A stretch of 64,000 nucleotides of DNA, taken from the NCBI GenBank assembly GCA_028278025.1, contig JANQFE010000054.1, forward strand, positions 4,160-68,159, given 5' to 3'. Both the position numbers and the translations under genes were made by a program. This DNA is from Thermodesulfobacteriota bacterium (GTDB lineage: Bacteria; Desulfobacterota; WTBG01; CAIYCZ01; CAIRTM01). The notes beneath the pieces were generated by a model. It ran no database searches and had not been told where the DNA came from. It saw only the letters and a list, made by a program, of their open reading frames with translations. This document shows, piece by piece, positions 7,473-55,619 of the stretch. The first letter of the stretch is position 1, and every line of letters starts with the position of its first letter.

Positions 7473-7570
7473 ATTACCGGATTTTTGCAGTACAAAAAAA
7501 ATTAAAAGATTGTATACTATACAATAATATAAATTACATTAAAAATTTTATGTGTAATTTTATAGGGTAT

Positions 7571-9736: not shown

Positions 9737-9766
9737 CCCCTATGGTGTGGCAGCTTTTTTCTTTTT

Positions 9767-13966: not shown

Positions 13967-13968
13967 AA

Positions 13969-14664: not shown

Positions 14665-14882
14665 GAAGTCCCCTGACCACCGTCTCTGACAAAACCCAGC
14701 CACTTGAAAATCATAATATTTATAAATCAAGTCCATTGTATTCATACTAAAAACTATTTTTTTTATTTTAGTATTGCAAAATATGTGTTATGCTAATTAA
14801 ATAGTCTATTAACCTCTACCGGTTCTGTAACTCATTTTGTCATTCTACAGATCAGTTCACCAGCTATGCAAAGGAGTAGTAC

Positions 14883-18139: not shown

Positions 18140-18328
18140 TGGGGCCTCCCTGGTTTCGTGATTAGTAACTTGTAATTCGTGATGGGCAGGAGCACCTACC
18201 GGTGCAATTTTTTTCGCGGCCACAATCCGTTCCTGCTTCTTAATCCTTTAATTCTGAATCATTATTTACTCCTTTCGGCCTGCCTCTTAGCCATTCACTC
18301 TTATCCAGTTGCTCTTTTAATGCTTATT

Positions 18329-39013: not shown

Positions 39014-39026
39014 CAGGAACCTGTAT

Positions 39027-41264
39027 ATGGCACGTAAAAAAAAGCAAAGGGCCAGCAGTAAAAAAAAAACAGCTGCACCGGCAGCTACCCTTACAAAAGG
39101 CAAAGATTCAAAGATAATCAATATTTCAAAAAAAGGGGCGGTTTCGGCTGAAAACTTTTTTAAAAGCCTGTCAAAATATAGCCGCTGGATAGAGATTTGC
39201 GCGCTTGTGGCAATTATTGTCACCGGCGTTCTTTTTCGTCTGGAAGACCTGAGCCAGTGGCAGAACCGTGAACAGAAAGCCTTTTTTGATAATCAGCCTC
39301 TGCACACTACATTTGATGCGTGGTTTTATCTAAGCCTTGCTAAAGATATTGCCGAAGACACCTATTATCCTATTGACGAAAAGCGCGGTGTCCCTGACAG
39401 TCCTCCCCGCCCTTCCCCGCCACCGCTTATTTCTTGCCTGACTGCTGTAATTGCAAAAACAACATCATTTTCTATGAGCTGGATTGGTGCCATACTGCCT
39501 CCTCTGCTTGGTCCTCTGCTTGCTATTCCGCTGTTTTTGCTCGGACGCTACTATGGCGGTCCTATTATGGGACTCAGCGCTGCGCTGATGGCGCTTCTCT
39601 ATCCATTCTATGTATACCGGAGTAATGTGGGCAGGTTCGATACAGACTGTATGAATGTTACCTGGGCTGCATGTGCTGCGTATCTTTTTTTAAGGTTCGG
39701 CATTCTGGAAACAAAAAAAAGATACATTTATTTGCTCGGCGGGTTTATCGTGTATGCGCTGTTTTTATGGTGGTGGGATCAGACTCCTGCCGTAGTGGGC
39801 GCCATTACGTTTCTTCCTCTGGCAGTAGCTCTGGCATTATTCTATCGCCCGCCCAAAAAAGAAGCCTTCCTGCTGTATGGCGGTCTTGGTGCCGGAGTGG
39901 TCATACTTCTTGCAGTTAACGGTATTGCTATGCCGGTAAAAATCTTACAGTCAATCTGGCACCAGTATCTGTATATTACCAAGGATGCCTCCGGAGATTT
40001 CCCCAACATCGGCCTTACCATAAGCGAGCAGTCCCGGCCGTCTTTTGACCTGGTATTAGGCTATACCACAAAGAACATCCTTGCCTTTGTTTTTAGTGTT
40101 GCCGGAATTATTTTGCTTGTGTGGAAACGTTTTAAAGATGCCCTTTTTCTGCTTTCTTTGATTATTTTATCTATTATGGCGGTCACCACTGCAAACCGTT
40201 TCCTGATTTTCCTGATTCCCATCCTGGCGCTCGGCGCGGGCTTTTCCCTGTCGATGCTCTGGGGCCTTCGTAAGCAATTCACAGCGCTTACAGTTGTTTG
40301 CCCCGTGCTGATACTGTGTATGTGCATCCCGCTCTATAAGGCCAATTCAGATTACGTGCAGTGGCCTAAAGAATCCGCGCCTATCATTGCCGGCATGGAC
40401 ACTGCCAAAAAGAAAACACCTTCAGACGCTGTAATCTGGGCCTGGTGGGACCATGGGTATGCCCTTACTTACTATGCCCGGCGTGCCACCATCAATGACG
40501 GTTCCATTCACAGCGGTGAACGAACCGTATATACGGGAATCCCGCTTGCTACAGACAGTTTTCAGCTTGCTGCAAACTTTATGCAATTCTACGTCATCCG
40601 CGGCATGAAGGGCATCAAGAAATTACACAATGCAACTGATGATAATCCCGGCAGCGGGTTAACCCTGCTTAAGAAGATCCTCCGCGCCGGCCCTGATAAA
40701 GGCCGGGCACTTATAGCAGAGGCTAACTTGAAGCCGGTTGGAAACTGGAAAACTGTTGATGACTGGCTGCGATTCTTTTATCCTCCCGAAAAGCGCCCGG
40801 TTTACCTGTTCGTTGACAACCTTTTAACTAAGACCAGCTACTGGTGGCACTGGTTCGGCACCTGGGACATGCAAAAGCAGGAAGGCCTTCACCCCGTGTA
40901 CCAGCCTTTCTACAACGTTAAGAAAAAAGGTGGCATGATAAGAGGCACCGGCGGGCTGCAAATAAATATGGAGACAGGTGATCTTTACACAAAAAACAAT
41001 CGCATCAAAATATCTAATTTGTTAATCCGCAAGAAAAAGGATATTAAAGAACAAAATTACGGCACTAAAAAAGGTTATAGATTTGAGATGCTTGAGCAGG
41101 CTCGCTACGGTGCCCTGATGGATGCACGAATTTCAGAATCAGTTTTTAATAAACTGTTTATCCGCCATATCTTTCCGAAAAAATATTTCCGCCCCGTAGA
41201 AATCAACTCCCCGTTTTATCAGCTCTGGGAAGTCCGGGGTGATTCCCTCCCAGATGCTGCCTGA
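39027..41264 (+). CDS. AglB/PglB/STT3-family oligosaccharyltransferase homologue
   Basis: About 13 predicted TM helices and then a soluble domain containing WAWWDHGY, a variant of the WWDYG catalytic motif. The start was placed at MARKKKQ to avoid overlapping the GT2 gene. Confidence 0.6.
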   Translation: MARKKKQRASSKKKTAAPAATLTKGKDSKIINISKKGAVSAENFFKSLSKYSRWIEICALVAIIVTGVLFRLEDLSQWQNREQKAFFDNQPLHTTFDAWFYLSLAKDIAEDTYYPIDEKRGVPDSPPRPSPPPLISCLTAVIAKTTSFSMSWIGAILPPLLGPLLAIPLFLLGRYYGGPIMGLSAALMALLYPFYVYRSNVGRFDTDCMNVTWAACAAYLFLRFGILETKKRYIYLLGGFIVYALFLWWWDQTPAVVGAITFLPLAVALALFYRPPKKEAFLLYGGLGAGVVILLAVNGIAMPVKILQSIWHQYLYITKDASGDFPNIGLTISEQSRPSFDLVLGYTTKNILAFVFSVAGIILLVWKRFKDALFLLSLIILSIMAVTTANRFLIFLIPILALGAGFSLSMLWGLRKQFTALTVVCPVLILCMCIPLYKANSDYVQWPKESAPIIAGMDTAKKKTPSDAVIWAWWDHGYALTYYARRATINDGSIHSGERTVYTGIPLATDSFQLAANFMQFYVIRGMKGIKKLHNATDDNPGSGLTLLKKILRAGPDKGRALIAEANLKPVGNWKTVDDWLRFFYPPEKRPVYLFVDNLLTKTSYWWHWFGTWDMQKQEGLHPVYQPFYNVKKKGGMIRGTGGLQINMETGDLYTKNNRIKISNLLIRKKKDIKEQNYGTKKGYRFEMLEQARYGALMDARISESVFNKLFIRHIFPKKYFRPVEINSPFYQLWEVRGDSLPDAA

Positions 41265-41687: not shown

Positions 41688-42959
41688 TCAGGCCAGCACC
41701 ATGCTGTCCAGGGCTTTAATTTTTTCATGGATTTCAGGTTTTTCACGAGCGATTCGATCCTGATGACGAAGAATGGACTCCCACATCAATCGTGGTGTTT
41801 TGTACTGACTCAAGGTTCCCTCAAGCACTTCATCCTCCGTCAGGGAAAACAGGTAATCCAACTCATCATCATTATAGGTGGGGGAGAGTGAATACCCTTG
41901 CGCAACCCGCAAAAAATCACTACTATTAAATTCAAAGGTATCATTCCACCACCTGGTGTATTCACTGAATCCTTTTTTTCCCTGCAGCTCACGGACAATT
42001 GCAATTCCTGCATGATAGCCGCACATGATACCACCCTGAACCTGCACCTCGACAAATGCAGCTGCATCACCAATAAGCAGAGCACTGTCCTTGTACGGGA
42101 CGGGGATGGTGCTGCAGGCCTTGAGGGTACACCCTGTAGTTTCGACCACTTCGGCATCTTCAAACATGTAGGCCAGTGGGCTTTGGGTGGTGAAATAATG
42201 AAAGATCTCTTTCGGTTTCAGCTCCGTGTCCCCTGACACCAGAAGGTCCATGGTGTTGTCCCCCAAAAGGGTTGGCCCCATGAGAATCGGGCGCTTTGAG
42301 CCGTAAACTAATCCGTTGGCATTTTTAAAGGTATGGGGCTCAAACCCTTTGACTCCTTCCATTACGGTCATGATACAAAGTGCCGTTGTAAAATGGGTGC
42401 GGTTTTGATTGAAACCAAGACAGGCTGCGAGTTTTGAATTTACTCCATCGGCAACAATCAGCTTCTTAGCCCGCAGCTTTTGTTCCTTTCCACCCCTGCT
42501 GAAGCGAACGGAGATACCCTCCGGGCTGTTGTGGGCATCACGGGTAATGGCACTATTGATAAACTCTACCCCCAGCCTTTCACACTGCTGCAACAGCTGC
42601 TGTAGCAGGCGACCCTTGTCATATCGCAGCCCAATGGGTTGTCGGCCCTGATGAGAAAAGTGTATTTTGTGCCCCCTGGGAGAAAGATAATACTTTTCAT
42701 TAATATCAACTGTCGGCCCATCGTAATCTATTTCAAAATTGTTTCGGGTAAAAACAATCTTTCCTTGTTTAACACTGATGCCTTCATTTTGATAATCATT
42801 ATCCATAATGAGCATCTGACAGCAGGAACGGGTTATTCTTGATATATCCCTCTGTTTTTCCACTAGGACCACCTTCAGGCCCTGTTGAGCTGCGGTGATG
42901 GCGGCCTGTAGACCAGCCGGCCCAGCTCCCACAATGATTACATCCCATTTTTTTTCCAT
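41688..42959 (-). CDS. FAD-dependent oxidoreductase of the geranylgeranyl reductase family
   Basis: DVIIVGAGPAG is a Rossmann FAD motif. The …LIGDAAAFV… region and overall length match GGR-family reductases. Confidence 0.7.
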   Translation of the reverse strand: MEKKWDVIIVGAGPAGLQAAITAAQQGLKVVLVEKQRDISRITRSCCQMLIMDNDYQNEGISVKQGKIVFTRNNFEIDYDGPTVDINEKYYLSPRGHKIHFSHQGRQPIGLRYDKGRLLQQLLQQCERLGVEFINSAITRDAHNSPEGISVRFSRGGKEQKLRAKKLIVADGVNSKLAACLGFNQNRTHFTTALCIMTVMEGVKGFEPHTFKNANGLVYGSKRPILMGPTLLGDNTMDLLVSGDTELKPKEIFHYFTTQSPLAYMFEDAEVVETTGCTLKACSTIPVPYKDSALLIGDAAAFVEVQVQGGIMCGYHAGIAIVRELQGKKGFSEYTRWWNDTFEFNSSDFLRVAQGYSLSPTYNDDELDYLFSLTEDEVLEGTLSQYKTPRLMWESILRHQDRIAREKPEIHEKIKALDSMVLA

Positions 42960-43061: not shown

Positions 43062-44822
43062 TCATTGTCTATCCGTGACAGACACAGCAAATTCCAAAAC
43101 ATGCTTTGCAAGAATTTCACCAACCCGGGGGTCATCATTTGCCTGCTGAGCGATCTCCCAGGTACCCGTGTACTGTTCCTGAACAGGCATGTGCGAATTA
43201 AGCGAATCCGATGCCGGATCATAGCCAAGATGTCCGTAATTGCTCACATCAAAAGCAAGCGAAGGATCAAGATTACTGATAGCTTCGTCAATCGGAGTCT
43301 GGCGGGGGGGAGGATAGGGTCTTCCGTCAGCACAGCCGCCCATTTCAAAGCAGCACTCAGCACCGTCGCAGTCAGTAGTGACATAGGTCCCCCAGTAATC
43401 GGCAAAAGGATCCCCATAGTCAGGGAATCTTGCGTAATCAAAAACACCCCATTTCGCCCATGTTCTCATGCCAATCTCTTTGCCGATCTGGTTGAAGAGC
43501 TCAACGCCGTGGAGAGCGTTTTCAGTCAGTAACTGCGGCCAACCAATAATAATATGTTTGATACCACGATCCTTTAAATATTCCAGTCCATCCCAGTAGC
43601 GGTATCCCCAGGGATGGCCCGACAGCGGCTCATCTGCCTCATGCAGGTAGCATGCAGCAAAAGATTCACCCCTCATGTTGCGAGTATATTCCTCGATGTC
43701 GTTCTCAGGATTCACCTCTTTTTCTCCACCAAAGGAGCCGATTATGTTGTCGGGGTCAAAACCGGGATGCCGTTCAAGCAGAAGTGTTTTAATATTTTCA
43801 TTAAACAGATTAGTATCATTCATTTTAGGGTCAAAATAACGTCTACTTTTCCTAAATAGGCCGTGGTTAAAAAATAAAATACCGGTTTGATTGTCAGGGA
43901 CTGTTTCAGACAGGACAGCTTCGATTCCTTCCACATGAAGCAAGGCATAGTCCATATCTTCAATCAGCGGATTCTGGCCTGCTGCCACATCAGCATGCTG
44001 GTCTGTGGTTGGCTCGCCATACCAGGGAGTCCAGTCCTCAGGCTCGCTCGGATATGAGCGTTCCATAAGACCGGTATAATCATTAACCCAGGTGAGTTCA
44101 ACATCCTTCAGGTGCTTGGCATTCCATTGTTCCAGCACGAGCTTGCACATCTGGACAACATCATAGCCCTTGTAAAAACGAACTCCCCCGACCGCGGTGT
44201 CGATCACGATAATATGCTGTACACCTTTTTTAAGCAGCCGCTCTACCGGACCGTCCACGTTGTATCGTTGCGGGTCACAGTCTTCCCAGGGGCCATCATC
44301 CAGCCCTTCGCCGCAGTAGTTAATATGCACCCCTTTTTCATCGGGCAGATTATAAATATATCTTGGATAAGCATAGTGGTCAGGATAGCCTGCCGGGCTC
44401 CAACCTGCCCAGTCAACCTCAAAAGTTATACCGTGGGTGTTTTTGTCCAGTTCGGTCTTCATATCCTGTAGTTGCGTCATCGTAAAGTCCATGAACGGCT
44501 CAACCCCTCCTACCCGGTCATAGGTAAAACGAAACCGCTCGGCATACTCGGCCACAAAAGGGTTCAATTCTGGGGTTACAAGCACAGGCCACATTGCCGG
44601 ATTTTTTATAACAAATTTATGCACATGATCATACGGGTCATACGATGCCATCTGGACTGCCACGTCCCACAGGTACTGAAGTTTGTAGGTATCGGCTGTC
44701 CCGTGGACAACATAGATGACACCAATTTTTGTTTTTGTCACCGGAGCACAGGTCAGCATAGCAGCTGAAAGACTCAAGACTAAAATGCATAGCATGATTT
44801 TGTTTCGCACATGTGACCTCAT
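43062..44822 (-). CDS. Secreted protein of unknown function, member A of a three-gene paralogous family (possible class-II chelatase-like fold)
   Basis: Signal peptide, then KIGVIYVVHGTADTY and a later ILFFNHGL. Both are hydrophobic-strand-HG elements reminiscent of CbiK/CbiX chelatase half-domains. The same N-terminal pattern recurs in 45722..48364 and 49538..52108. Confidence 0.6.
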   Translation of the reverse strand: MRSHVRNKIMLCILVLSLSAAMLTCAPVTKTKIGVIYVVHGTADTYKLQYLWDVAVQMASYDPYDHVHKFVIKNPAMWPVLVTPELNPFVAEYAERFRFTYDRVGGVEPFMDFTMTQLQDMKTELDKNTHGITFEVDWAGWSPAGYPDHYAYPRYIYNLPDEKGVHINYCGEGLDDGPWEDCDPQRYNVDGPVERLLKKGVQHIIVIDTAVGGVRFYKGYDVVQMCKLVLEQWNAKHLKDVELTWVNDYTGLMERSYPSEPEDWTPWYGEPTTDQHADVAAGQNPLIEDMDYALLHVEGIEAVLSETVPDNQTGILFFNHGLFRKSRRYFDPKMNDTNLFNENIKTLLLERHPGFDPDNIIGSFGGEKEVNPENDIEEYTRNMRGESFAACYLHEADEPLSGHPWGYRYWDGLEYLKDRGIKHIIIGWPQLLTENALHGVELFNQIGKEIGMRTWAKWGVFDYARFPDYGDPFADYWGTYVTTDCDGAECCFEMGGCADGRPYPPPRQTPIDEAISNLDPSLAFDVSNYGHLGYDPASDSLNSHMPVQEQYTGTWEIAQQANDDPRVGEILAKHVLEFAVSVTDRQ

Positions 44823-44926
44823 GGCATGTCCTCCCTCTAAAAAATTTTATAAAAAAGTAGTTCACCTCTTAATATCATTGCTTCGGGAAGTAAGGATTGA
44901 ACTTTTTTCTTTCTCCAAGCATTTTT

Positions 44927-45718
44927 TCAGTTGTTTTTATTGGAAACGTGTCGTGTCCATCGCTGCCATGGCCGGTAGTCCATTTTTCTGAATTCTACGT
45001 TGGTGATTGTTGCCTCTTTGACGGTTATCCTGCTTCCCACCATCATCTGTTTAAACATCGTCCGGCACTTATCCGGGGAAATTTTTCTTGCGCTTGCCTG
45101 TGCCTCGTATGGAATAAACTCCTTTAAATTTTTTTCAAATTCAGGATCACTACCTTCAATAAGTTCCGCGGTTCCGCTAAACTGTATGCAAAGGAGTTTG
45201 GTAAATGATTCATATTCACGATGCCAGTTAATGCTGACCCTGGGGTTTTGCTGTATGTGGAAAAGCTTTGCGGTGCCTTTTTCATGAATACCGTAAAGGG
45301 TCATTTCACTCGGGTCCAGGGTAAATTCTGCTGTTGTACTTAAGGGCGTGTTATTAACACAGGTGGAAAGTACACAGGTCTTACTTTGTTTTTTTCCACC
45401 CATAACATCTGCAATGGCCTTCTCTATTTTATCACGGGACATCATTCCCTCTTTGGCATTAAAATCGGCATAATCTCCTGAAAGCCAGACCTGTGTCGCA
45501 GTGGTTTTTGCATCCAGTTTAATTTCATGACAGTCCACGCAGCTAACTCCTGCTCCTACCTCTGGATGATTTTCCTGTATCTCTTCAGACGCTTCAATTT
45601 TTTTTGCCTCTTTTACATCCCTTCCGTCATTTTCTGCAGACAGTGTTGATATCATACAAACAAAAATTATTGCAAAACAGCCCGCAATAACTGTAAATGC
45701 GTTGTTTCTCCTTGCCAT
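44927..45718 (-). CDS. Secreted protein with a single CxxCH haem-binding motif and a PNPOx-like (general-stress-protein-26-type) FMN-binding fold
   Basis: Signal peptide, GVSCVDCHEI, and a C-terminal region resembling the pyridoxamine-5'-phosphate-oxidase-like fold. Confidence 0.45.
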   Translation of the reverse strand: MARRNNAFTVIAGCFAIIFVCMISTLSAENDGRDVKEAKKIEASEEIQENHPEVGAGVSCVDCHEIKLDAKTTATQVWLSGDYADFNAKEGMMSRDKIEKAIADVMGGKKQSKTCVLSTCVNNTPLSTTAEFTLDPSEMTLYGIHEKGTAKLFHIQQNPRVSINWHREYESFTKLLCIQFSGTAELIEGSDPEFEKNLKEFIPYEAQASARKISPDKCRTMFKQMMVGSRITVKEATITNVEFRKMDYRPWQRWTRHVSNKNN

Positions 45719-45721
45719 CGT

Positions 45722-48364
45722 TTACGCTCCTGTCTGTTTATTCTCAAAATTAAAAAACGGCACCCACATAACGACCCACACATCACACCTGCCGTCATTC
45801 TGTGTCGTTATCGGCACCCGCGCAATGTGCAGACCTGCATCCAACCCTGATCGACCCACTGTGAGCATTAGCACTACTGAGCCGGATTCTTCCACAAGAC
45901 CAGCAGAAGGAGCCGGAGTCAACCAATTACCATCTTCACCACGTTCGCTGCCGAAAATATACTCCGGGTCTCCTACTTTCCATAACAGACTTCCGGATCC
46001 ATCATTGTGGATAGTTATGCCATATTTTGTCATTTCACGATTTAAAAAGACCAGTTGCGGATCTACTCTGATAAGCGGCATCTCTGAGATAATCGGTGTC
46101 TTGTAAGTCAGCACCTCCTCAACACTCCGGTAAACGGCCTCGACCAGGTTTGTACGCACATCGGCATCGGCGACAGTCAGTTGAGGCCCGGTGATGATCA
46201 CGGTTGTCGGGTTGGTCGTGCTGCCCTTATAAACGGTTACCGGCGGATCTCCGGACGGTGCGATGCAGGTATATGAGCAAATAGAAGGATTACTCGACAT
46301 CGGCTCTGAACAGAAGCAGTCATCTGCACCGATCGTGCAGGTGCATTCGGCGGGTGCGCTGGGGATGTGGACGGTTTCAAAAACAGTACCGTCCAAGTTT
46401 ACCATAACAAAATACTCTCCGTCAGTTTCATTATAATCAGTGCCTGGTATATACCCCACATAGTCCTGCGGACCGAACCGGTCACCATCCGGGCTTAATC
46501 CGTTGCGCTCACTATGTTGTGCCTCCAAATGATATTCCATACTTGAAAGCGCTTCTTTTTTTTCATGGAAGTCGCCGGAGAACCCTTCAAAAAAGTACGG
46601 TACGGCAATTATGTAGCTGTATCTGTCATTACCGTTATCAATAATATCTCCATAGTAGTTCAGATAGGTACCGTTGGTGCAGTTGTCAACCTGTTCACCC
46701 AGTGACATGACATTACCGAACCAGCTGTACTCCGGTATCGAGTCCGGCGGCAGGGGTTTGGCAGGCGGAACATCACTGGTCGAATAATGACCTTCAGCAT
46801 ATTCGCCGGCACCGCGCACTACCTTCATTTTGCTGAACCTGTAAGGCAGATCAGTTTTAGTCATGAGGTACTCATGTGCCTGGTCAAATCTCACCGCATC
46901 CTCAACAAAACCGACATCACAGGTAGCAGAATCTCTGTGTACGCCATGATAGCCGTGATCAACGAGTATAACTGCCAGGGATTGTGTGCCGTTATCGGGG
47001 ATGGAGAATTTGTTTATCGTGTAGTTGATCATAGCTTCAACCGATTTGTCAGCCTCTTCATATTTTCCGTATGCCGGAGCAAACTGAAGATCAACCTCGA
47101 CACCATTGCTGGTTGCAATAACATCTACCATTTCAACAATTTCAGGCCATGGATTATTCGGGCGATACTCTTCTGGCTTTTCACTGAAATAGGCATCCCG
47201 TTCTGCCGGGTCATGTACCGTACCGGCTGTGTAGCCGGGCCCGTAGTCGTCATCAAGGTCTTTAATGCACTGCAGATAGGTTTTGCCGGGTACACGGCTG
47301 ACAGGGGTACCATGATCAGGGTCATATCGATACTCTTTTTCATACCAGCTATCACCGTATTGGGTCATATTATAAAAAGCCGAATTGTTATGTACTACCA
47401 GAATTCTATCAACCCCATCAACTACAATAAAATTTTCCAGTGCTGTTTCCACACTTTCGGGAACCGTTGCCGGCAATCCTGTCGGACCCAAATTTTTTAT
47501 GGCAACTTCCCAGCCGTAACGGAAGACAAATTCAAAATCGTCTGTCAGGTCTGATGCAAGGATGCGGTCCTTAACATTGGCGAGCTCAGGAGTGTCTCTT
47601 CCACAGCCGGGATCAATCCCTTCACAATCGGCATCGTTTCCAAACCAAAATTTCCGGTAGTCTTTTCTGTGCGGATCATATCCCCATGTACCATAGGCTG
47701 CTGGAAGTTCAGCATGGTAATCAAAGCGTCCCCAGGCTACAATTTCATGGAATTCGGGAAACCCCTGACCGGGATTAAATGCAGCTTCGGGTTCAAGGAC
47801 CGGACCGACTATGTTAAGGCCGGTGGAGGGATCGATCGTGTGGTTTGCAGAAGAAAACATTGCATAGGACCTGCCGAAATTCGGATAGCAGTCGTCAGAG
47901 AAAGAACCGTCACCCCCCTGAGTGACCGGACCATATTCTTTTATTGAATGTACCACTGTCATTGGAGGATATTCATTGCAGAACACATCGATCAGATCCT
48001 CTGCTGCAACATCACTGAAACCCGCCGCCTGACAGCCCAAGGCTTCGTTTTCAGTTGCATAATGAACCTGTGTATAACATTTGAGCTGGTCGGTCGGCTT
48101 ACCTATAAAACCACCCACGTGAAAACCGTCAGCGAAGATACTCCACATGTTGTTAAAAAACGCCGATACCCACTCACCGCTGTTCGGATAATATTCACCA
48201 GCACCCGTCCGGATAAAAAGCACCCCGACTTTTTCCTTGCCGAACGACACAGCAGGAGTGCTTGCAGTAATGATCAGAGTCAGTGCAAGACCCAATAATT
48301 TTCGAAAAAAAGTTTCTTTGTTCCTTTTTTTTAACTGCAAAATTTCACAATAGATTAGTTGCAT
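45722..48364 (-). CDS. Large secreted protein (880 aa), paralogous family member B, cysteine-rich Ig-like C-terminal region
   Basis: Signal peptide, KVGVLFIRTGAGEYY, RILVVHNNSAF and LAVILVDHGYHG elements, and a C-terminal Cys-rich stretch (CTCTIGADDCFCSEP…). Confidence 0.6.
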   Translation of the reverse strand: MQLIYCEILQLKKRNKETFFRKLLGLALTLIITASTPAVSFGKEKVGVLFIRTGAGEYYPNSGEWVSAFFNNMWSIFADGFHVGGFIGKPTDQLKCYTQVHYATENEALGCQAAGFSDVAAEDLIDVFCNEYPPMTVVHSIKEYGPVTQGGDGSFSDDCYPNFGRSYAMFSSANHTIDPSTGLNIVGPVLEPEAAFNPGQGFPEFHEIVAWGRFDYHAELPAAYGTWGYDPHRKDYRKFWFGNDADCEGIDPGCGRDTPELANVKDRILASDLTDDFEFVFRYGWEVAIKNLGPTGLPATVPESVETALENFIVVDGVDRILVVHNNSAFYNMTQYGDSWYEKEYRYDPDHGTPVSRVPGKTYLQCIKDLDDDYGPGYTAGTVHDPAERDAYFSEKPEEYRPNNPWPEIVEMVDVIATSNGVEVDLQFAPAYGKYEEADKSVEAMINYTINKFSIPDNGTQSLAVILVDHGYHGVHRDSATCDVGFVEDAVRFDQAHEYLMTKTDLPYRFSKMKVVRGAGEYAEGHYSTSDVPPAKPLPPDSIPEYSWFGNVMSLGEQVDNCTNGTYLNYYGDIIDNGNDRYSYIIAVPYFFEGFSGDFHEKKEALSSMEYHLEAQHSERNGLSPDGDRFGPQDYVGYIPGTDYNETDGEYFVMVNLDGTVFETVHIPSAPAECTCTIGADDCFCSEPMSSNPSICSYTCIAPSGDPPVTVYKGSTTNPTTVIITGPQLTVADADVRTNLVEAVYRSVEEVLTYKTPIISEMPLIRVDPQLVFLNREMTKYGITIHNDGSGSLLWKVGDPEYIFGSERGEDGNWLTPAPSAGLVEESGSVVLMLTVGRSGLDAGLHIARVPITTQNDGRCDVWVVMWVPFFNFENKQTGA

Positions 48365-48564
48365 TGCGATCTCCTTTTTGAATTAGGTGTTCGGTCAGCG
48401 TTTGTCTATTGAAACCGTCCAAAACGCCGGGTAGCGGGCATTGCTGAAACAAAGTGATGCTCACCAGTGTATGGCCGGATCAACCAATACAATAGATGCT
48501 GTTTTTTGTCATATCTGTTTCACCGGACCGGCCTCCACGCCGGCATTCCCTGGCGGCTATATTA

Positions 48565-48582
48565 GAATTAGAATTCTAATTC
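48565..48582. promoter_or_regulatory. Perfect palindrome GAATTAGAATTCTAATTC (extendable to the 22-bp palindrome TAGAATTAGAATTCTAATTCTA at 48563..48584), putative TetR operator upstream of the 880-aa secreted-protein gene
   Basis: Read directly from the sequence. It equals its own reverse complement. It lies between the tetR stop (48630) and the start of gene 45722..48364. Confidence 0.55.
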
Positions 48583-48629
48583 TATTTATGGTTAAAAAAG
48601 AATGCTACTTACTTGAGTATTACGCCTGA

Positions 48630-49247
48630 TTACTTCTGAATAAATTCTCTAATTAAGCTCTTAAGGGCCCTTAGCGCGTCACCAGCAGTATAGTCGATAG
48701 CTCTATTCTGATACTGACCGTAGTACAGCCCGTCCAAAACGGCCCGGATGCTTCCCCCCAGAATGGCTCTCAGGAGGCTAGGTTTGTATATCGAATTAAA
48801 TAGACCGGCTTTTTGACCAGCGAGAATGACGCCATCAATGGTTTGCATCAAAGTGGCGTTCTCGTTGTAGATTTTACGGCGCTTGCCAAGTAGTTTTTTG
48901 TTCTTAACCACTGAAATCTGGGGCCAGGCTTCACTGAGCACTTTCATTACGGGCAGTTTATCGTCTTGATTACAAAGGGATAAGAAATTGTCCACAATAC
49001 CCAACAAGGCCTCCACCGGATTAAGTGTTTTTTTGATCACCTCCTGGCTGCTTTGGTTCAACTTTTGGAAAAACCCCAGCACGATGGAGAGAATGATGTC
49101 ATCTTTGTTGAGAAAATAGGAGTATATCAGTCCGGTTGAAAAGCCCGAAGCTTTCACAATGCCGGTGATGGTGGCATTGTGATAACCGTTCTCGGCGAAT
49201 ACCCGGGTTGCGGCGATGAGTACTTTCTGTTTTTTTTCTTTATTCAT
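48630..49247 (-). CDS. TetR/AcrR-family transcriptional regulator
   Basis: The N-terminal HTH (AATRVFAENGYHNATITGIVKASGFSTGLIYSYF) is the classic TetR_N domain. It is flanked by palindromic operators. Confidence 0.85.
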   Translation of the reverse strand: MNKEKKQKVLIAATRVFAENGYHNATITGIVKASGFSTGLIYSYFLNKDDIILSIVLGFFQKLNQSSQEVIKKTLNPVEALLGIVDNFLSLCNQDDKLPVMKVLSEAWPQISVVKNKKLLGKRRKIYNENATLMQTIDGVILAGQKAGLFNSIYKPSLLRAILGGSIRAVLDGLYYGQYQNRAIDYTAGDALRALKSLIREFIQK

Positions 49248-49257
49248 GACCAATATA

Positions 49258-49275
49258 GAATTAGAATTCTAATTC
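49258..49275. promoter_or_regulatory. Second copy of the palindrome GAATTAGAATTCTAATTC, about 11 nt upstream of the tetR ATG (putative autoregulatory operator)
   Basis: Identical 18-bp core to 48565..48582, located over the RBS/promoter of tetR. Confidence 0.55.
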
Positions 49276-49537
49276 CAATATAGCATGGCATTTGATCATG
49301 TCAAGTTTTTTATCGCAGAGGTAAAATTCAATACAAGCTACTAATTACTTGGTAACATATAAAGAGTATCAACATTGTAATTTACTATGGCTGAAACCCC
49401 GTTGTACATGTCTGGGCAGGACCGACAATATCAAGTATATCTTCTTCCGTATAGGTGATCACTGTTGGGGTTTCATATTCTTTAATTTGTTTCTTCCATG
49501 CTGTAAATCCTCCAATTATATCGCTATGTTATTTTCC

Positions 49538-52108
49538 TTATTTCACCCTAATGGTAGAGGAAACAGGTCCATGCAAAGTTGAGACTCCATTAACATCCAC
49601 ATCCTCCAGTTTATACCAGCACGCTTGCCGCATCTGTACATCCCTATCGACGAACTCATAATCTGCTCCCTGTGTAGCAGAGCCCTGGGCTGGGATAAGA
49701 CTATCATTTATCTTTATATACTCCCCGTCCTCTGTAACGGAACGGTACAGGTTGAACCCGGCATTGTCAACCTCGCTGGAGGTGGCCCATTTTATAATAG
49801 CGGTGCGAGCAACCTTACGGGCTTCAAATGATTCAAGGGTTATAAGCGTGGGGGTATCCACCGCCAAGACAAAAATACCAAGTGTTTGCACATCAAAAGA
49901 AACCGTGCTGGCAACATCGTCTACAACCAGGCCGTCACCAGCCGGCACCGGGTAGACCCTGTCCCAACCATGTGTCAAATCGTTGAAGATATACGGACGT
50001 ATCTCAGCCGGGTCAGCTACCTGTGCAGGATTATACGGCAGCGTGATCCGGGCCGGTTTGTTGAACAGGGTCCGGTAAGGTCCGAAGTAGACCTGCGGGC
50101 CGACCATAGCAGCACCGCTCATATCCGGCAGAGCCGCCCCCGGTTCAACCTCCGCCTGCTCGCCGATATAGGCCGTAAAGTCAAACCAGGCCCCGATCTT
50201 GGGATCCTCGGGGTCATTGATGGTTTCGTAAATAATACCATGCTCATCAGTTGGGTAATATCCTTCCGGTAAATCAGGGTCGGGATCTGCCGGAACCACG
50301 ATTTTAGCCCCTGTCCGGGGGCCACTGGTCACTGCGGCTGATCCTCCGGTAAGCATGCTGACCGGTCCCTGGGCATCAACCGTTATGTTAAGGTCAGGAA
50401 AAATTCCGAAACGTTCGACCCCACCCCGAATTCGCTGAGCATAGCCGTGAATAAACTCGGTTGCGACATCGTCAAAAGTCTGGGTAAAAAGAATATGTAT
50501 GTCATCAGGATCCGAGCAGGCATATCCTGCAGGGCTTATTTCGGTAAAAGTGTTGTCGCCGGGCACAGGACTTTCACACCAGTCGAGCCAGAACTTGTCA
50601 TTTTCAAGGTCCTCGTACGGGTTGAATGGAAGCTCGTTGACATCCCGCATGGCATGCCCGTTATCAATGCTGTCGTAATACCAGTGCGAAAGCAGAATAA
50701 CCGCTTCTTTCCTGCCATCCTGTTTCATGAGATCAATAGTCTCACGGACATTCTTGAACGTGCTCTCATTATCCCCGGGTATTGTGTAATACTCCGGCTG
50801 AAACATACCGTAGATGTAGTAATTGTCCAGCCTGTCATCGCCGGTTGTGCCGGCCCGGTTGTAAATCAGGTTGTAGGTATCACCCAGTACATCCTCGGCA
50901 TAGCGCTTGAAGTTCAGATAATTATAATATGCATTTTCCATATATACATCGCTCACCCACGGGTGTGGAACACCAAAGGGGGTATTTGGGTTAGAGCTTG
51001 TGCCGGGCCATGGATTACCGTAAGTCACATACCCAAGGGCCACGGGATCTGCCCCCGGATCGAGCCTTTCAAGATGAGGGATCAGGTTTGCCAGTACCAT
51101 GGTGTTGTACTCAGGTGTCCTGCCCACCTGCTTGACCTGTTTTATATCAACCTCGGTGTCATAGCCGCTGAGGCATAGTTCCCGGTCCACATAGTAGCGG
51201 GTCATAAACATGTTGGCGTAATTGTTGTTGTCGGTGGTCTCCCGGGTCAGCACCATCTTGGTCAGGCCGTCCTGGGCCATCTGCAGGGCCACGTCTTCAT
51301 GGCGTTCGGTCAAACCCTCTGTTTCCTCGTACATACCAAAGCGTATATCAACCGTATCGCCGAAAAACGTGTCAAAATAGTGGGTTAAATCCTCTTCGAT
51401 CTGCAGTGTAAAAGGATGTATACGCGGGCCGTCAGCATACTCCGGGATAGCCATCATTCTTACCACTCGCCACCAGTAGGCCAGATCAAGTTCTACCGCA
51501 TCGTGCACACCATTGGCAAATCCCTGGTAGTGAATCTTACCGGTTGCGGGGTGTAGGTAGGGCGCTCCTATGATGTAGAACCCTTCAAGGTGGTCTGTTC
51601 CATTACGCGTATCAGGTGTAAAAATTGCCCTGCCGCGGCCGAACTCAATATTGCGTGCGGGCTCATAAATGACAGGTGCAATGATACTGCTTTTCAATAC
51701 GGTATTGCTCGGCTCAAGCACATTGACGAAAGTTTCGTTGTCCTCGCTCAGCCAGTAAAGCCCGTAGGCATCATAGGCTGATTCATAAAAAGTACCGACC
51801 ATTTTAAAACAGATCATATAGGGCATCACACCAATTTGCTGGCGCAGCGGATAAGTCCCCACATAGTTTTCAGTACAGGGTTCGGTTTCTGAAGATGCAT
51901 TGTCTCCTATTCTGGAACGGTGCCCGATCTTGCTGTAATAGTTGAAATCCATGCCATCCGGTGTGCCCCAGTCCGTTACCAGGATGCCGACTTTATCCTC
52001 AACAGGGGTCTGTGCCAGGGCAAGACCGGCTATAGCTATAGTGATTGTCAATACAACTGCTCCCACAACACTCAGTACAACTTTCAGATTAAAGTGTTTT
52101 TTCTGCAT
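49538..52108 (-). CDS. Large secreted protein (856 aa), paralogous family member C, with C-terminal beta-sandwich (FN3/Ig-like) domain
   Basis: Signal peptide, KVGILVTDWGTPDGM and EAVILLSHWYYD elements, and a C-terminal approximately 100 aa with a …W.T.SE.DN.GFNLYR…YKLEDVD.NG.STLHGPV pattern. Confidence 0.6.
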   Translation of the reverse strand: MQKKHFNLKVVLSVVGAVVLTITIAIAGLALAQTPVEDKVGILVTDWGTPDGMDFNYYSKIGHRSRIGDNASSETEPCTENYVGTYPLRQQIGVMPYMICFKMVGTFYESAYDAYGLYWLSEDNETFVNVLEPSNTVLKSSIIAPVIYEPARNIEFGRGRAIFTPDTRNGTDHLEGFYIIGAPYLHPATGKIHYQGFANGVHDAVELDLAYWWRVVRMMAIPEYADGPRIHPFTLQIEEDLTHYFDTFFGDTVDIRFGMYEETEGLTERHEDVALQMAQDGLTKMVLTRETTDNNNYANMFMTRYYVDRELCLSGYDTEVDIKQVKQVGRTPEYNTMVLANLIPHLERLDPGADPVALGYVTYGNPWPGTSSNPNTPFGVPHPWVSDVYMENAYYNYLNFKRYAEDVLGDTYNLIYNRAGTTGDDRLDNYYIYGMFQPEYYTIPGDNESTFKNVRETIDLMKQDGRKEAVILLSHWYYDSIDNGHAMRDVNELPFNPYEDLENDKFWLDWCESPVPGDNTFTEISPAGYACSDPDDIHILFTQTFDDVATEFIHGYAQRIRGGVERFGIFPDLNITVDAQGPVSMLTGGSAAVTSGPRTGAKIVVPADPDPDLPEGYYPTDEHGIIYETINDPEDPKIGAWFDFTAYIGEQAEVEPGAALPDMSGAAMVGPQVYFGPYRTLFNKPARITLPYNPAQVADPAEIRPYIFNDLTHGWDRVYPVPAGDGLVVDDVASTVSFDVQTLGIFVLAVDTPTLITLESFEARKVARTAIIKWATSSEVDNAGFNLYRSVTEDGEYIKINDSLIPAQGSATQGADYEFVDRDVQMRQACWYKLEDVDVNGVSTLHGPVSSTIRVK

Positions 52109-52407
52109 GGTAACCTCCCTGCTTAAAGGTTAATAAAGTTTAAAATAATAAATATAGAAATAATCAAAGGTACTTGTCTGGATGCCCAGCATTGGCTGGG
52201 GTATTTAAGTAGAAGATAATTACATGTTATGTGCCGAAAAGATGAAAAATCGAAAAATATTTTTTATAGTTTTTTCAAATATTTATGCAAATCATACACA
52301 AAAAGGATAAACATAGACTAAGGCATTATGCCTAAGTACAGGACGGCTGTTTACTCGAGCAGAACTAATTTTGTAAGTTAATTAAAATAGTTATAGAATG
52401 GGCGGCA

Positions 52408-53826
52408 TTATGCCGTAGTATACGGCGTTTTGCCGTCTTCTGTGGTAAGTTTTTTCAACTTGCGCTGGAGGGTACGCAGATCAATTCCCAAAATCACGGC
52501 AGCCCTGGTGCGGTTGCCGTCGGTAAAATCAAGTACCCGCTTTATATGCATTTTTTCCATCTTTGCCAGGGAAATAAGCCCCCCGTCATCTGTGTGCCCG
52601 GTTACCTTTTCAGAAAAGACATTCAGACCATAAACAGAAGCCTGTGACAGGATGCTACCAGGTTCTAAAATGACTGCTTTAGCCATTACACTTTCGAGTT
52701 CCCTGACATTGCCGGGCCAGTAATACCTGAGCATAACCTCTTCAAGATCAGCAGCGAGGCTGGTGATCTTTTTTTTGTTACGAGAGGCGTGCACTTGCAG
52801 AAAGTGGCGAGCCAGTGGAAGGATGTCCTTGGGACGCATCCTGAGTGGAGGAATATGGATTGCAAACATGTTGAGCCGGTAAAACAAATCCTCTCGAAAT
52901 GCCTTCTTCTGGATTTCTTCAGAAATGTCCCGGTTGGTTGCCGCAATAATGCGGACATCCGCTTTTTGAGGCCGGGCACTGCCCAGACGGTAGAATTCAC
53001 CTTCCTGGAGCACCCGCAAGAGCTTGGCCTGCAAATTCGTATCCAGTTCGGTTACTTCATCCAGAAACAGGGTGCCGGTGTGGGCTGCTTCAAAAAAACC
53101 CTGCTTATCACTGAGGGCTCCGGTAAAAGCACCTTTTACATGTCCGAAAAATTCGTCCTCAAAGAGCTGGTGGTTGAACGCAGCCATATTAACCGGAACA
53201 AAAGGACCGTCGGCACGTGTGCTCAGGGAGTGTATAGTCCGTGCCAGCAATTCCTTACCCGTACCGGACTCACCGGTTATAATCAAGCTGTAATCGGTTG
53301 GCGCAATGGCTTCGGCCTGGTTGAAAATACGGGCCATGGTCTCATCCGCCGCTACCATATCTGCAAAAGCATCGGGGTGCTCCAGGCTGGCAAACGAAGG
53401 CTTGCTCTTAAAAAAAGCGAGTTCTCTACGCATGGCATAACGTTCCAGGGCATTCTTAATAACCACTACCAGTTTTTTCCGATCTACAGGCTTGACAAGG
53501 TAATCATAGGCACCCAGTTTTATGGCCTGGACCGCTGTGGAAACGTCATCAATGGCAGTTATAATGAGGCATTCGGTTTCCGGGGCAATTTCTTTAATCT
53601 GCTGCAGCAGTTCGATCCCGCCTATATGGGGCATGATAAGATCAAGGAGAACCAGAGAAAAATGTTGTTCCCCGATAACATCCATCACCTGCCGGCTGTC
53701 TGACAGAAGGGTAGGTTCAGGCATTCCGGCACTGATCAGAGCCGCTTCCATGCTGGAAAGCAGTCCCTTATCATCATCCACAATGAGGATCGGCGTTTTC
53801 TCAAACGGCAGCAATTCCATATACAC
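52408..53826 (-). CDS. Sigma54-dependent response regulator (NtrC family: REC-AAA+-Fis HTH)
   Basis: REC domain, Walker A GESGTGKE, an intact GAFTGA loop, an arginine finger region and a C-terminal Fis HTH. Confidence 0.85.
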   Translation of the reverse strand: MYMELLPFEKTPILIVDDDKGLLSSMEAALISAGMPEPTLLSDSRQVMDVIGEQHFSLVLLDLIMPHIGGIELLQQIKEIAPETECLIITAIDDVSTAVQAIKLGAYDYLVKPVDRKKLVVVIKNALERYAMRRELAFFKSKPSFASLEHPDAFADMVAADETMARIFNQAEAIAPTDYSLIITGESGTGKELLARTIHSLSTRADGPFVPVNMAAFNHQLFEDEFFGHVKGAFTGALSDKQGFFEAAHTGTLFLDEVTELDTNLQAKLLRVLQEGEFYRLGSARPQKADVRIIAATNRDISEEIQKKAFREDLFYRLNMFAIHIPPLRMRPKDILPLARHFLQVHASRNKKKITSLAADLEEVMLRYYWPGNVRELESVMAKAVILEPGSILSQASVYGLNVFSEKVTGHTDDGGLISLAKMEKMHIKRVLDFTDGNRTRAAVILGIDLRTLQRKLKKLTTEDGKTPYTTA

Positions 53827-53873: not shown

Positions 53874-55619
53874 CTATGTCACTATTGGAAACGATACAAC
53901 AAACGTAGTCCCTTTATCAAGCGTACTCTCAAAGGTAATGGTTCCGTCATGGTCCTGTACAAGGTTATAGGTAATGGAAAGCCCCAGGCCGGTACCGCCC
54001 CGCTCCTGCTTGTCGGTAAAAAAGGGATCAAAAATATTTTCAGCAACCTTCGGATCAATACCGCATCCATTATCGTTAACCGTCACGAACACTTCACGGG
54101 TCTTCTCCCGGAAGCCGCTCTTGATCGTGACCAGGCCATGCTCATGCTCCACCGCCTCAATCGCATTGATGAGCAGGTTCAGGATTACCTGCTCAATCTG
54201 CTGCGGCATGCCCTGCATCAAGGGTGCCTTATCGACAAGCTGGAGATCCAAATCCACCCCTGCTTTCCTGAGGGCTGTTTGCGACAAGGTTACCGCATTT
54301 TTTACAGCTTCATTAATATCCATATGCCGTTTGTCTTCATAGCTTGAGTGGCGGCTGAAACTCTTTAAGCTTTCAACAATTTTTGCAATCCGGCTGGCGG
54401 CAATTCCCATATCATCCAGCAGGGTGTCCAGCTTGCGCTCCACATAGCCATAGGGGAGACCACCAAACTTTTTCTGCGGGTCACTGCATCCCGCTGCTTC
54501 AAGCACCGGCTTGGCATCCCGCCACACATCCTGCACCAGAGGCAGATTGATCATGATCAGGTTGACGGGGTTGTTAATCTCATGCGCAATGCCGGCCACA
54601 AGGGTTCCCAGCGAGGCCATCTTAGCAGCCTGAATCAACTGTTCCTGCTGCCTCTGTGCTTTTGCCTCCATCTGTTTGCGTTTTGTTATATCACGGACCG
54701 AGCAAACGCTGCCGATCAGTTGGTGTTTGTTATCCTGCAGGGTCGTTATATTAAGCTCCACCGGATAGGTAGTGCCGTCTTTTTTTACCTGTTTCGATTC
54801 GAAACCTTTTACAATCCCCTCTGTGAAGAGCTGTTCAACCAGGGGGTGTCCTGTACCTGGTTTTAAAGCCGTTGGCGCTAATTCGGTCACATGCTTTCCG
54901 ATAAGCTCCGGTTCGGTATAGCCTGTCATCTTATAAAAGGTACGGTTGGCCATCACCAGAAGGCCCTGAGCATCTGTGACAAAAATACCGTCACCGGTGG
55001 TCTCAAAAACATTCTCAATAAATTCCTTGGATTCCCGCAGCTCTGCCTCACCTGTTAAAAGCTGTTGATTGGCCTCCTGGAGTTCGACAGTTCTGGTCTT
55101 GACCAGTTCATCCAAATGGTCACGATGCAGCATCAACTCGTGCTCGGCCCGTTTTCTTTCTTTTACCTCAGCATTTAAGTCCCGGTTGACAAACCGCAGC
55201 TGCAGACTGACGTCACGCAGACGGCCCACCATAGCCCCGATAAACGTGACTGCCGTGGTGCCGATGATAATCGTACCCCAGGAAAAGCCCTGGTGAAGAA
55301 CGTGTTCACCCAGCATGAGATACATGAGGATATTGACCGGTGCTGCCAAAATGCCCGCACAAAAGCCCCGCCCGAACCCGTACAGCCATGCAATCACAAT
55401 CACCGGTATGACGGCAATAATAGAGCTGCCGAACCCTGCCAGACGATACAGTACGACAAAACCCAACACATAAAAAGCAACTGCACCAAGGGCAAAAAAG
55501 AGATAACTTTGGGGAGTTTCGTATAGCGCGGTGGTTTCGACTATCATTTCGTTATCTCTTGCAGGCTGGGGCATCTTCGGCACCTCGTCATTTAAACATT
55601 CGAATTGTATCCATGACAC
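53874..55619 (-). CDS. Sensor histidine kinase (multi-TM N-terminus, PAS, HisKA, HATPase)
   Basis: Five or six hydrophobic helices, a PAS domain, the H-box AHEINNPVN and G-boxes. It is the cognate partner of the upstream-transcribed NtrC-family regulator. Confidence 0.8.
   Translation of the reverse strand: MSWIQFECLNDEVPKMPQPARDNEMIVETTALYETPQSYLFFALGAVAFYVLGFVVLYRLAGFGSSIIAVIPVIVIAWLYGFGRGFCAGILAAPVNILMYLMLGEHVLHQGFSWGTIIIGTTAVTFIGAMVGRLRDVSLQLRFVNRDLNAEVKERKRAEHELMLHRDHLDELVKTRTVELQEANQQLLTGEAELRESKEFIENVFETTGDGIFVTDAQGLLVMANRTFYKMTGYTEPELIGKHVTELAPTALKPGTGHPLVEQLFTEGIVKGFESKQVKKDGTTYPVELNITTLQDNKHQLIGSVCSVRDITKRKQMEAKAQRQQEQLIQAAKMASLGTLVAGIAHEINNPVNLIMINLPLVQDVWRDAKPVLEAAGCSDPQKKFGGLPYGYVERKLDTLLDDMGIAASRIAKIVESLKSFSRHSSYEDKRHMDINEAVKNAVTLSQTALRKAGVDLDLQLVDKAPLMQGMPQQIEQVILNLLINAIEAVEHEHGLVTIKSGFREKTREVFVTVNDNGCGIDPKVAENIFDPFFTDKQERGGTGLGLSITYNLVQDHDGTITFESTLDKGTTFVVSFPIVT

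Follow-up and report, generated by a model that had tools for sequence, protein, structure and literature searches.

Three large exported proteins of 586, 880 and 856 residues (here members A, B and C) are encoded on the minus strand of a 64 kb stretch of a Thermodesulfobacteriota contig (JANQFE010000054.1; hereafter the window, meaning the whole stretch analysed). They raise the question of what a group of secreted proteins of this size, encoded alongside a small cytochrome-like protein and a TetR-type regulator, does at the cell envelope. An initial annotation, made from the sequence, had described them as paralogues carrying repeated 'hydrophobic strand-HG' elements, possibly with a chelatase-like fold; all three genes are present in the list of open reading frames (ORFs), and every one of the segments it quoted (ILFFNHGL, RILVVHNNS, LAVILVDHGYHG and EAVILLSHWYYD) is found in the translations. 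Its interpretation is supported in part. On balance we favour, by a modest preference, the reading that A, C and probably B are divergent extracytoplasmic proteins of the class II chelatase superfamily, which would bind or dechelate metallotetrapyrroles with a cytochrome as redox partner.

Predicted fold of members A and C

Signal peptides are present on all three proteins, each of which begins with an N-terminal hydrophobic signal followed, as had been noted, by the pattern K-[IV]-G-[VI]-[IL] (KIGVIYVVHG in A, KVGVLFIRTG in B and KVGILVTDWG in C). AlphaFold models of A and C were built on alignments of the respective families, with a predicted local distance difference test (pLDDT) score of 92 and a predicted template modelling (pTM) score of 0.90 for A, and of 87.9 and 0.85 for C. 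Both models comprise two Rossmann-like α/β lobes with a cleft and can be superposed over the full length of solved chelatases. Structure comparison gave the highest score (24.8) for Bacillus subtilis CpfC/HemH, with 294 of 311 residues aligned, followed by yeast ferrochelatase (22.8), SirB (18.0), the periplasmic CbiK of Desulfovibrio vulgaris (16.8), FetB of Porphyromonas gingivalis (16.5), CbiK (15.5) and CbiX (14.0), the first unrelated protein scoring 8; independently, Foldseek listed 44 ferrochelatase entries ahead of all else. These matches indicate that A and C belong to the class II chelatase superfamily as remote structural homologues, ferrochelatase being the nearest match of each, and we assign the predicted ferrochelatase fold to both with high confidence.

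PDB sequence and profile searches returned nothing for C and, for A, only a sub-threshold ferrochelatase motif; the 'YxRIGGxxP' stretch of A weakly resembles ferrochelatase 'YEAIGGISPL' (E 0.08 in the PDB profile search). The Pfam Ferrochelatase model (PF00762) aligns with residues 80–139 of A at 12.8 bits (E 0.057), short of its gathering score of 27 bits, and gives no match to B or C.

Cleft residues in the A and C families

Five residues of A (G34, V35, H40, H320 and H423) are invariant in all 60 family sequences aligned. When the A profile was aligned with B. subtilis HemH using hhalign (probability 57%), H40 aligned with Tyr13 and H320 with the metal-binding His183 (GILFFNHGL..FDP against MLIVSAHSL..GDP); residues 44–81 of the HemH sequence used agree with the fragment returned by the PDB profile search. 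The equivalent metal-binding histidine is His183 in the B. subtilis enzyme and His263 in human ferrochelatase. This feature of the ferrochelatase family, a metal-binding histidine on the first strand of the second lobe, is present in A (H320) and, through its alignment with A, in B (H470). The catalytic glutamate of ferrochelatases (Glu264 in B. subtilis, Glu343 in human) is carried by the helix that follows strand three of the second lobe. The corresponding segment of the A family reads F-P-Q-x-x-T-D-S-V-L-x-L-V-E, with D434 kept in 48 and E441 in 59 of the 60 sequences, both out of register in an alignment that is unreliable here.

In C, the two cleft-histidine positions are occupied by Trp47 and Tyr363; the latter, kept in 54 of 57 family sequences, aligns with HemH His183. 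The C family also has an invariant RETTD motif, and S474, H475 and W476 are each kept in at least 53 of the 57 sequences. The 'strand-HG' elements of the initial annotation are thus real and correspond to the first strand of each lobe, although only A carries them in both lobes, Trp and Tyr taking the place of histidine in C. These strands are more than a chance resemblance, since they are conserved within each protein's own family.

Member A is a probable lipoprotein, to judge from its sequence: a cysteine stands at the lipobox position in 43 of 60 relatives, the box of A itself, M-L-T-C, being atypical. It has a disulfide-like pair (C170/C182) and a C-terminal extension of ~125 aa (residues ~465–586, nt 43062–43430) in which C485, C490, C491 and C497 (C-x4-CC-x5-C) are nearly invariant; a conserved PYPPPRQ motif is also found there. 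Some ferrochelatases hold a [2Fe–2S] cluster with four cysteines. An iron–sulphur cluster at the four cysteines of A was considered and judged unlikely, as A has no twin-arginine motif and appears to be exported by the Sec or lipoprotein route; because of this export, disulfides are the more likely state of these residues. Some A-family proteins carry TSP3, dockerin, Ig-like or IPTL-CTERM additions at the C-terminus, which suggests surface display.

The A family comprises ~400 relatives at ~50% identity, all unnamed except one, a JGI sequence automatically labelled 'protoheme ferro-lyase'. A scan of GTDB species genomes gave 166 A-family stretches. The hosts are all uncultured and represented by metagenome-assembled genomes (MAGs) of Thermodesulfobacteriota, Rhodospirillaceae, Chromatiaceae and other Gammaproteobacteria, a single genome often having several paralogues (three to four in, for example, PL23b_bin.63 and binchicken_co47_113). 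Tandem A-family duplicates occur in one surveyed locus (L005, 8001–13297), where an 850-aa gene beside the A homologue, examined as a possible B- or C-like gene, proved to be a tandem A paralogue. The C family has more than 100 relatives, at 35–60% identity.

Member B and the relationship between the three families

Member B comprises a candidate chelatase-like domain (residues ~43–660), a Cys-rich linker (~670–705) and a C-terminal β domain. The extra C-terminal domains that the initial annotation had ascribed to the two longer proteins are present as β domains in both B and C, although the Cys-rich stretch is found in B only. B keeps a histidine at the C-lobe cleft position only: H470, conserved in 15 of 16 family members and followed by G471 in all 16, aligns with H320 of A.

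The B family is rare. An exhaustive HMMER profile search of 1.84 billion representatives gave 61 hits, mostly fragments, among which there was no A- or C-family protein and no chelatase; a word-indexed search found two relatives. A Pfam scan of all 16 B-family members detected Ig-like and TSP3 tails only, and sequence and profile searches of B against the PDB gave no chelatase match. In hhalign, B matched A with a probability of 85.8% over only 25 columns. After signal peptides and C-terminal domains had been trimmed, B scored 32–35 against A and 27 against C, whereas 12 unrelated control families reached at most 23–27 and A against C, a pair that share the fold, gave 23–27. The alignments are colinear, with EKVGVLF, GVDRILVV and SLAVILVDHG of B pairing with KIGVIYV, GVQHIIVID and GILFFNHG of A. 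We consider it probable, from these profile comparisons, that B too belongs to the class II chelatase superfamily. The chelatase-like fold first proposed for all three proteins thus stands for A and C on their models and structure matches, and for B on profile scores only. One relative of B (P0238) has four CxxCH motifs (residues 36–111) directly before the first strand of its B-type domain; this natural fusion joins a tetrahaem cytochrome c and a B domain in one protein, just as B and cytochrome genes are paired in the window and in one other locus (L004).

The description of the three as paralogous is not borne out by their sequences. Pairwise BLASTP among A, B and C gave nothing significant, and profile–profile comparison of the families with hhalign gave probabilities of 4–33%, with only the first strand (EK-I/V-G-V-L) aligning; on these grounds recent paralogy was rejected. 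By sequence, each of the three belongs to a family of its own, and the families differ in distribution.

The cytochrome-like partner and a flavoprotein

The 263-aa protein encoded between B and A has an N-terminal hydrophobic signal or anchor, one CxxCH motif (C60-V-D-C63-H64) and a PNPOx_N domain (PF01243) scoring 37.9 bits against a cut-off of 28.1 (2.6e-9), in agreement with the small secreted CxxCH/PNPOx-like protein first described; a match to the Rv1155/F420 class (TIGR03618) is weak. It is predicted to be an exported protein, free or anchored, in which a monohaem c-type cytochrome is joined to a PNPOx-like split barrel, the c-type haem motif implying maturation outside the cytoplasm. 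Its homologue in L004 (2.4e-21), the only other B-family locus with context, has a signal peptide and keeps the CxxCH motif as KCIDCHK.

Downstream of A lies a gene for a flavin adenine dinucleotide (FAD) protein of the geranylgeranyl-reductase family, predicted from its sequence to be a cytoplasmic FAD-dependent oxidoreductase; homologues recur near relatives of A or B in five loci (L004, L032, L035, L038 and L043).

Gene order and regulation

The genes for C, TetR, B, the 263-aa protein and A form a run of five ORFs in the same orientation (Table 1). The start of the cytochrome/PNPOx gene overlaps the stop codon of B (ATGA), and gaps of 104 and 102 nt separate the cytochrome gene from A and A from the FAD gene, respectively. 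Because of this spacing, B, the cytochrome gene and A, possibly with the FAD gene, can be viewed as one transcription unit behind the second of two putative operators, of which the FAD gene is probably the last member.

Table 1. Positions of genes, predicted domains and sequence elements in and around the cluster, in window coordinates.
Feature	Position	Strand	Remarks
Histidine kinase	53874-55619	minus	domains read from translation
NtrC-type sigma54 response regulator	52408-53826	minus	domains read from translation
Member C	49538-52108	minus	856 aa, ORF list
C, predicted ferrochelatase-fold domain	50399-51997	minus	residues ~38-570
C, ZU5-like beta sandwich	49853-50386	minus	residues ~575-752
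C, FN3 domain	49556-49846	minus	residues ~755-851
tetR promoter, TTGACA-16-TATATT	49304..49277	minus	just upstream of tetR
Putative TetR operator O1	49256-49277		one mismatch to O2; abuts tetR promoter
TetR-family gene	48630-49253	minus	207 aa; likely true start ATG at 49247
Putative TetR operator O2, TAGAATTAGAATTCTAATTCTA	48563-48584		perfect 22-bp palindrome, ~200 nt upstream of B start codon
Member B	45722-48364	minus	880 aa, ORF list
CxxCH/PNPOx protein	44927-45718	minus	263 aa, ORF list
CxxCH haem c attachment motif	45527..45541	minus	read from translation
Member A	43062-44822	minus	586 aa, ORF list
Codon of A His40	44703..44705	minus	end of first strand, N-lobe
Codon of A His320	43863..43865	minus	end of first strand, C-lobe
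FAD protein, geranylgeranyl-reductase family	41688-42959	minus	423 aa; TIGR02032 6e-26

The 207-aa regulator matches TetR_N (3.8e-12). A palindrome common to the tetR and B upstream regions was reported at the outset and is indeed shared, although only the copy before B is perfect and the other abuts a near-consensus promoter; a 22-bp palindrome of this kind is expected zero times by chance (100 shuffles), and no third copy occurs in the window at up to three mismatches. TetR would thus control the B–cytochrome–A(–FAD) unit through the palindrome. The whole set is not a single TetR regulon, since a predicted operator is found before tetR and B only and, by this criterion, C lies outside the TetR regulon. 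A related TetR gene is found directly upstream of an A homologue in another locus (L068; 1.4e-8), where the gene order is FDBR (bilin reductase)–TetR–A.

Upstream of C there are two GGCATAATGCC palindromes 82 bp apart (~52322–52345 and ~52404–52427), possible enhancers of sigma54-dependent transcription of the C gene; the same region was searched for a sigma54 promoter, and the only candidate is a weak GG-N10-GT element near 52236. Separate control of C by the adjoining upstream NtrC-type two-component system is plausible, if weakly supported. A 373-aa ORF with no Pfam match (55679–56800, minus) lies directly upstream of the histidine kinase and may be part of the sensing module.

Genes for a GT2 glycosyltransferase and an STT3/PglB-type oligosaccharyltransferase lie beside the cluster (38156–41264, plus). 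N-glycosylation by this PglB was considered, and the counts of D/E-x-N-x-S/T sequons in A, B and C (0, 1 and 2) are uninformative, with no evident link. Farther away, a 727-aa ORF (28258–30441, minus) shows an odd fusion: a response-regulator receiver and a sigma54-interaction AAA+ domain are followed not by the usual DNA-binding domain but by an entire LpxC domain (UDP-3-O-acyl-GlcNAc deacetylase). It adjoins an NtrY-like kinase.

Gene neighbourhoods of relatives

The gene context of ~160 related loci was surveyed, with bilin-reductase neighbours counted within 7 kb. A homologue of Fe_bilin_red (ferredoxin-dependent bilin reductase), from one of two subfamilies, lies near the A gene in 15 of 36 Thermodesulfobacteriota-type loci with usable flanks, compared with none of 25 alphaproteobacterial and gammaproteobacterial A loci and none of 80 C loci. 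The same 36 loci include a PNPOx-like protein in nine and a flavin-reductase-like protein of 288 aa in five. In several genomes these genes form an operon with the order MMPL–DUF1302–DUF1329–BNR–A–FDBR–c22–PNPOx–FlavRed, followed by MFS or OYE. The MMPL–DUF1302–DUF1329–BNR envelope module stands immediately upstream of A–FDBR, in an apparent operon, in the Thermodesulfobacteriota loci L015, L019, L025, L037 and L086 (~3500–10000). A, PNPOx and C genes share one operon in L025, where the C-family gene is last. The B-type locus L004 encodes TetR, the exported CxxCH–PNPOx protein, DUF169, a geranylgeranyl-reductase-like FAD protein and AFOR, with DUF169 between the cytochrome–PNPOx and FAD genes. 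Further recurrent neighbours of A are AFOR, flavoenzymes resembling 2,4-dienoyl-CoA reductase, and the geranylgeranyl-reductase-like FAD protein; a coproporphyrinogen-oxidase-like neighbour scores 47 bits against a cut-off of 31.8, and among A-context proteins there is also a PCP_red tail, whose match is weak and falls short of the Pfam cut-off.

In the alpha- and gammaproteobacterial loci, A is flanked by Rieske/VanA-like oxygenase, CpeT/CpcT-family, CtaA, HiPIP, CN-hydrolase and MFS genes, and by an α/β hydrolase with Chlorophyllase as its best Pfam match (45 bits, cut-off 26). In the 80 C loci, all metagenomic, the clusters are stereotyped: they include MFS genes in 25 loci, a TonB-dependent receptor in 22, CN-hydrolase and the chlorophyllase-like family just mentioned in 13 each, and DUF1838 in 12. 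Neither in the window nor in the ~160 related loci did we find haem-biosynthesis neighbours.

The window itself contains a trio FMN_red–Fe_bilin_red–FMN_red (13334–15521, plus), whose Fe_bilin_red homologue (13969–14664, plus) belongs, at 276 bits, to the same subfamily as those adjacent to A in other Thermodesulfobacteriota MAGs. For a bacterium that is presumably anaerobic and non-photosynthetic, having a ferredoxin-dependent bilin reductase homologue at all is unusual. The published contexts of pre-PcyA bilin reductases include Fe–S, V4R, globin and haem oxygenase genes (PMC10151467); they were tried as a match for the A-adjacent homologues and differ from the contexts described here. Two adjoining DUF169 genes at 17.4–19.3 kb lie beside a radical SAM gene, away from the cluster (intervals 17453–19303 and 19426–20358, both minus), and one of the DUF169 genes has a C-terminal match to PCP_red (protochlorophyllide reductase; 24.8 bits, below the cut-off).

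Comparison with known systems

In the comparison with HemH/CpfC (PF00762), identity is ~13%, below the Pfam threshold, and there are 250–550 additional residues in the form of insertions, the C-terminal extension, and ZU5 and FN3 domains. A, B and C are exported, not cytoplasmic, and lack a haem-biosynthesis context; the catalytic glutamate is not evidently conserved, A has His in place of Tyr13, and C has Tyr in place of His183. The periplasmic CbiKp of D. vulgaris (PDB 2xvx) is a sequence-recognisable, single-domain CbiK of ~260 aa, whereas A, B and C are two to three times its size, resemble ferrochelatase more than CbiK, and are encoded in other operons.

A closer parallel in location is IhtB/FetB of P. 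gingivalis, a CbiK-fold haem-binding lipoprotein that has been proposed to act as a reverse ferrochelatase and whose gene lies beside that of a TonB receptor (PMC12094164), its dechelatase activity itself being a proposal. There is no sequence similarity to IhtB/FetB (PDB 9b86), which is CbiK-like where the present proteins are ferrochelatase-like, and its partner is an ABC transporter, in contrast to the cytochrome/PNPOx protein, flavoenzymes, bilin-reductase homologues and MFS proteins found here. Of the traits of that system, the chelatase fold is seen in the models of A and C, the lipobox of A is atypical, and a TonB receptor lies beside C relatives in the 22 loci counted above but not in this window. 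In function, the nearest analogue of the proposed chemistry is HmuS of Bacteroidota, encoded in an uptake operon, which removes haem iron anaerobically and reductant-dependently without ring cleavage (PMC12583661). HmuS likewise needs a reductant, but it is a membrane-bound, NADH-dependent class I (CobN-like) protein that resembles A, B and C in neither fold nor size.

Chlorophyll breakdown in plants and algae offers a further parallel: when the A-family neighbours of all lineages are pooled, they comprise a chlorophyllase-like hydrolase, bilin-reductase homologues and a Rieske oxygenase, together with a candidate dechelatase. The plant and algal set consists of chlorophyllase or pheophytinase, the Mg-dechelatase SGR, the Rieske oxygenase PaO and RCCR, a member of the bilin-reductase superfamily. 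The likeness is one of Pfam families, with no locus holding all parts, the Rieske protein being VanA-like and not PaO-like, the fold of SGR different, and the anaerobes having no oxygenase of any kind; we regard it as an analogy, not membership.

Exported haem binders with a chelatase fold being already known, the kind itself is not new. What appears to be new, on sequence comparison, are three orphan families, far larger than characterised class II chelatases, with new domain combinations and conserved gene contexts.

Proposed function and alternatives

The fold, the conserved histidines, the extracytoplasmic location, the redox partner, and the neighbouring families and uptake machinery together point to the handling of exogenous metallotetrapyrroles at the envelope. 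The substrate class and its dechelation are inferences, as are the regulon and the part played by the cytochrome. In the proposed mechanism, A, B and C would bind exogenous haem- or chlorophyll-type metallotetrapyrroles, either in the periplasm or at the envelope. The central metal would be removed or exchanged by A and B, which have a histidine at the metal-binding position; the invariant histidine on each lobe of A is placed to face the two sides of the bound macrocycle. The cytochrome c/PNPOx protein would supply the electron that makes the metal labile, for example by reducing Fe(III) to Fe(II), and the cytoplasmic geranylgeranyl-reductase-like flavoenzyme would act on the imported product. 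C, with Tyr and Trp for His and with relatives beside TonB receptors, would be a binding or hand-over component and not a catalyst. TetR would repress tetR and the B–cytochrome–A(–FAD) unit until a ligand, presumably the substrate, binds.

Several observations count against this proposal. Scans of A, B and C against Pfam and NCBIfam assigned no family and reached no threshold for Ferrochelatase, CbiK or CbiX. A clear counterpart of HemH E264 was not found in A (in the segment whose alignment is unreliable), both cleft histidines are absent from C, and it is the profile scores that suggest the fold of B. The PNPOx partners beside A elsewhere are cytoplasmic and have no CxxCH motif. No bilin reductase, TonB receptor or MFS gene lies next to the cluster in the window, where Fe_bilin_red is 30 kb off. 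DUF1302, DUF1329, BNR and RND genes have been linked to fatty-ester use in Pseudomonas fitness data (10.1101/2020.07.04.188060). The hydrolase with the Chlorophyllase match also fits PETase and PAF-acetylhydrolase models and so may be a generic esterase, and the Rieske/VanA-like, luciferase-like, SDR and CN-hydrolase neighbours of the alpha- and gammaproteobacterial loci would also suit the catabolism of non-tetrapyrrole aromatics or esters.

A wider reading, which we put forward tentatively and regard as rather unlikely in its full extent, is that A, B and C found three new families of extracytoplasmic tetrapyrrole dechelatases and receptors heading an unrecognised route by which environmental chlorophyll- and haem-type pigments are scavenged or degraded. 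In anoxic Thermodesulfobacteriota, the bilin-reductase homologues, PNPOx- and flavin-reductase-like proteins, OYE, geranylgeranyl reductase and AFOR would then constitute an oxygen-independent reductive pathway, while aquatic Alpha- and Gammaproteobacteria would employ TonB receptors, chlorophyllase-like esterases and Rieske oxygenases.

It is also conceivable, though unlikely, that A, B and C only bind or carry tetrapyrroles, in the manner of hemophores or for periplasmic hand-over, and remove no metal. The tyrosine of C at the position equivalent to His183, the TonB-dependent receptors and MFS genes adjoining its relatives, and the want of a clear catalytic glutamate in A all agree with a carrier, as does the fact that haem binding is the main known property of the structural matches D. 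vulgaris CbiK and P. gingivalis FetB (PMC12094164). However, A keeps the histidine at the metal position together with a second invariant histidine on the opposite lobe; the translational coupling of a dedicated redox partner to B and the cytochrome fusion in one B relative speak for chemistry and against mere binding; and three chelatase-fold proteins in one locus exceed the needs of a simple carrier.

Quite unlikely, in our estimation, is a substrate of another kind, such as a fatty or aromatic ester, a siderophore-like metallophore, humic or lignin fragments, or some other bulky hydrophobic or metal-chelating molecule, in which case the neighbours from tetrapyrrole-associated families would be coincidental or re-purposed as well. 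The fatty-ester link of the DUF1302/DUF1329/BNR/RND module speaks for such a substrate, as do the aerobe neighbours (Rieske/VanA-like oxygenase, SDR, luciferase-like monooxygenase, CN-hydrolase and generic α/β hydrolases) and the AFOR and OYE-type reductases typical of anaerobic aromatic metabolism; the combination of TetR, TonB receptor and MFS fits metallophores too. Yet all of the structurally close proteins handle tetrapyrroles, the metal-position histidine is invariant in A, and at least six independent tetrapyrrole-associated Pfam families recur beside A (Fe_bilin_red in two subfamilies, Coprogen_oxidas, CpeT, Chlorophyllase, COX15 and PNPOx, with PCP_red weaker).

Forward chelation, with extracytoplasmic metal insertion for cofactor maturation or for loading an excreted porphyrin metallophore, is highly improbable: the ferrochelatase fold, the conserved histidine and the automatic name of the one JGI relative suit it, but neither the window nor the ~160 related loci have haem, sirohaem or cobalamin biosynthesis genes nearby, the transporters, reductases and hydrolases found there are of the kind expected for uptake and catabolism, the proteins fall below the Pfam thresholds of every chelatase family, and TetR control suggests substrate-induced use.

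Implications

To our knowledge, the only anaerobic routes established for chlorophyll and haem macrocycles are ring opening by radical SAM enzymes (ChuW) and dechelation by HmuS, a class I enzyme described recently. The envelope handling of metallotetrapyrroles that we favour for A, C and probably B would bear on how heterotrophic bacteria, especially anaerobes, dispose of or recycle these macrocycles, which pass in very large amounts through water and sediments; one of the three families is widespread in marine and freshwater metagenomes. For probing tetrapyrrole recycling, the locus offers candidates that can be cloned, together with a predicted operator and its repressor. The predicted ferrochelatase fold of A and C indicates that the class II chelatase superfamily reaches well past what sequence models detect.

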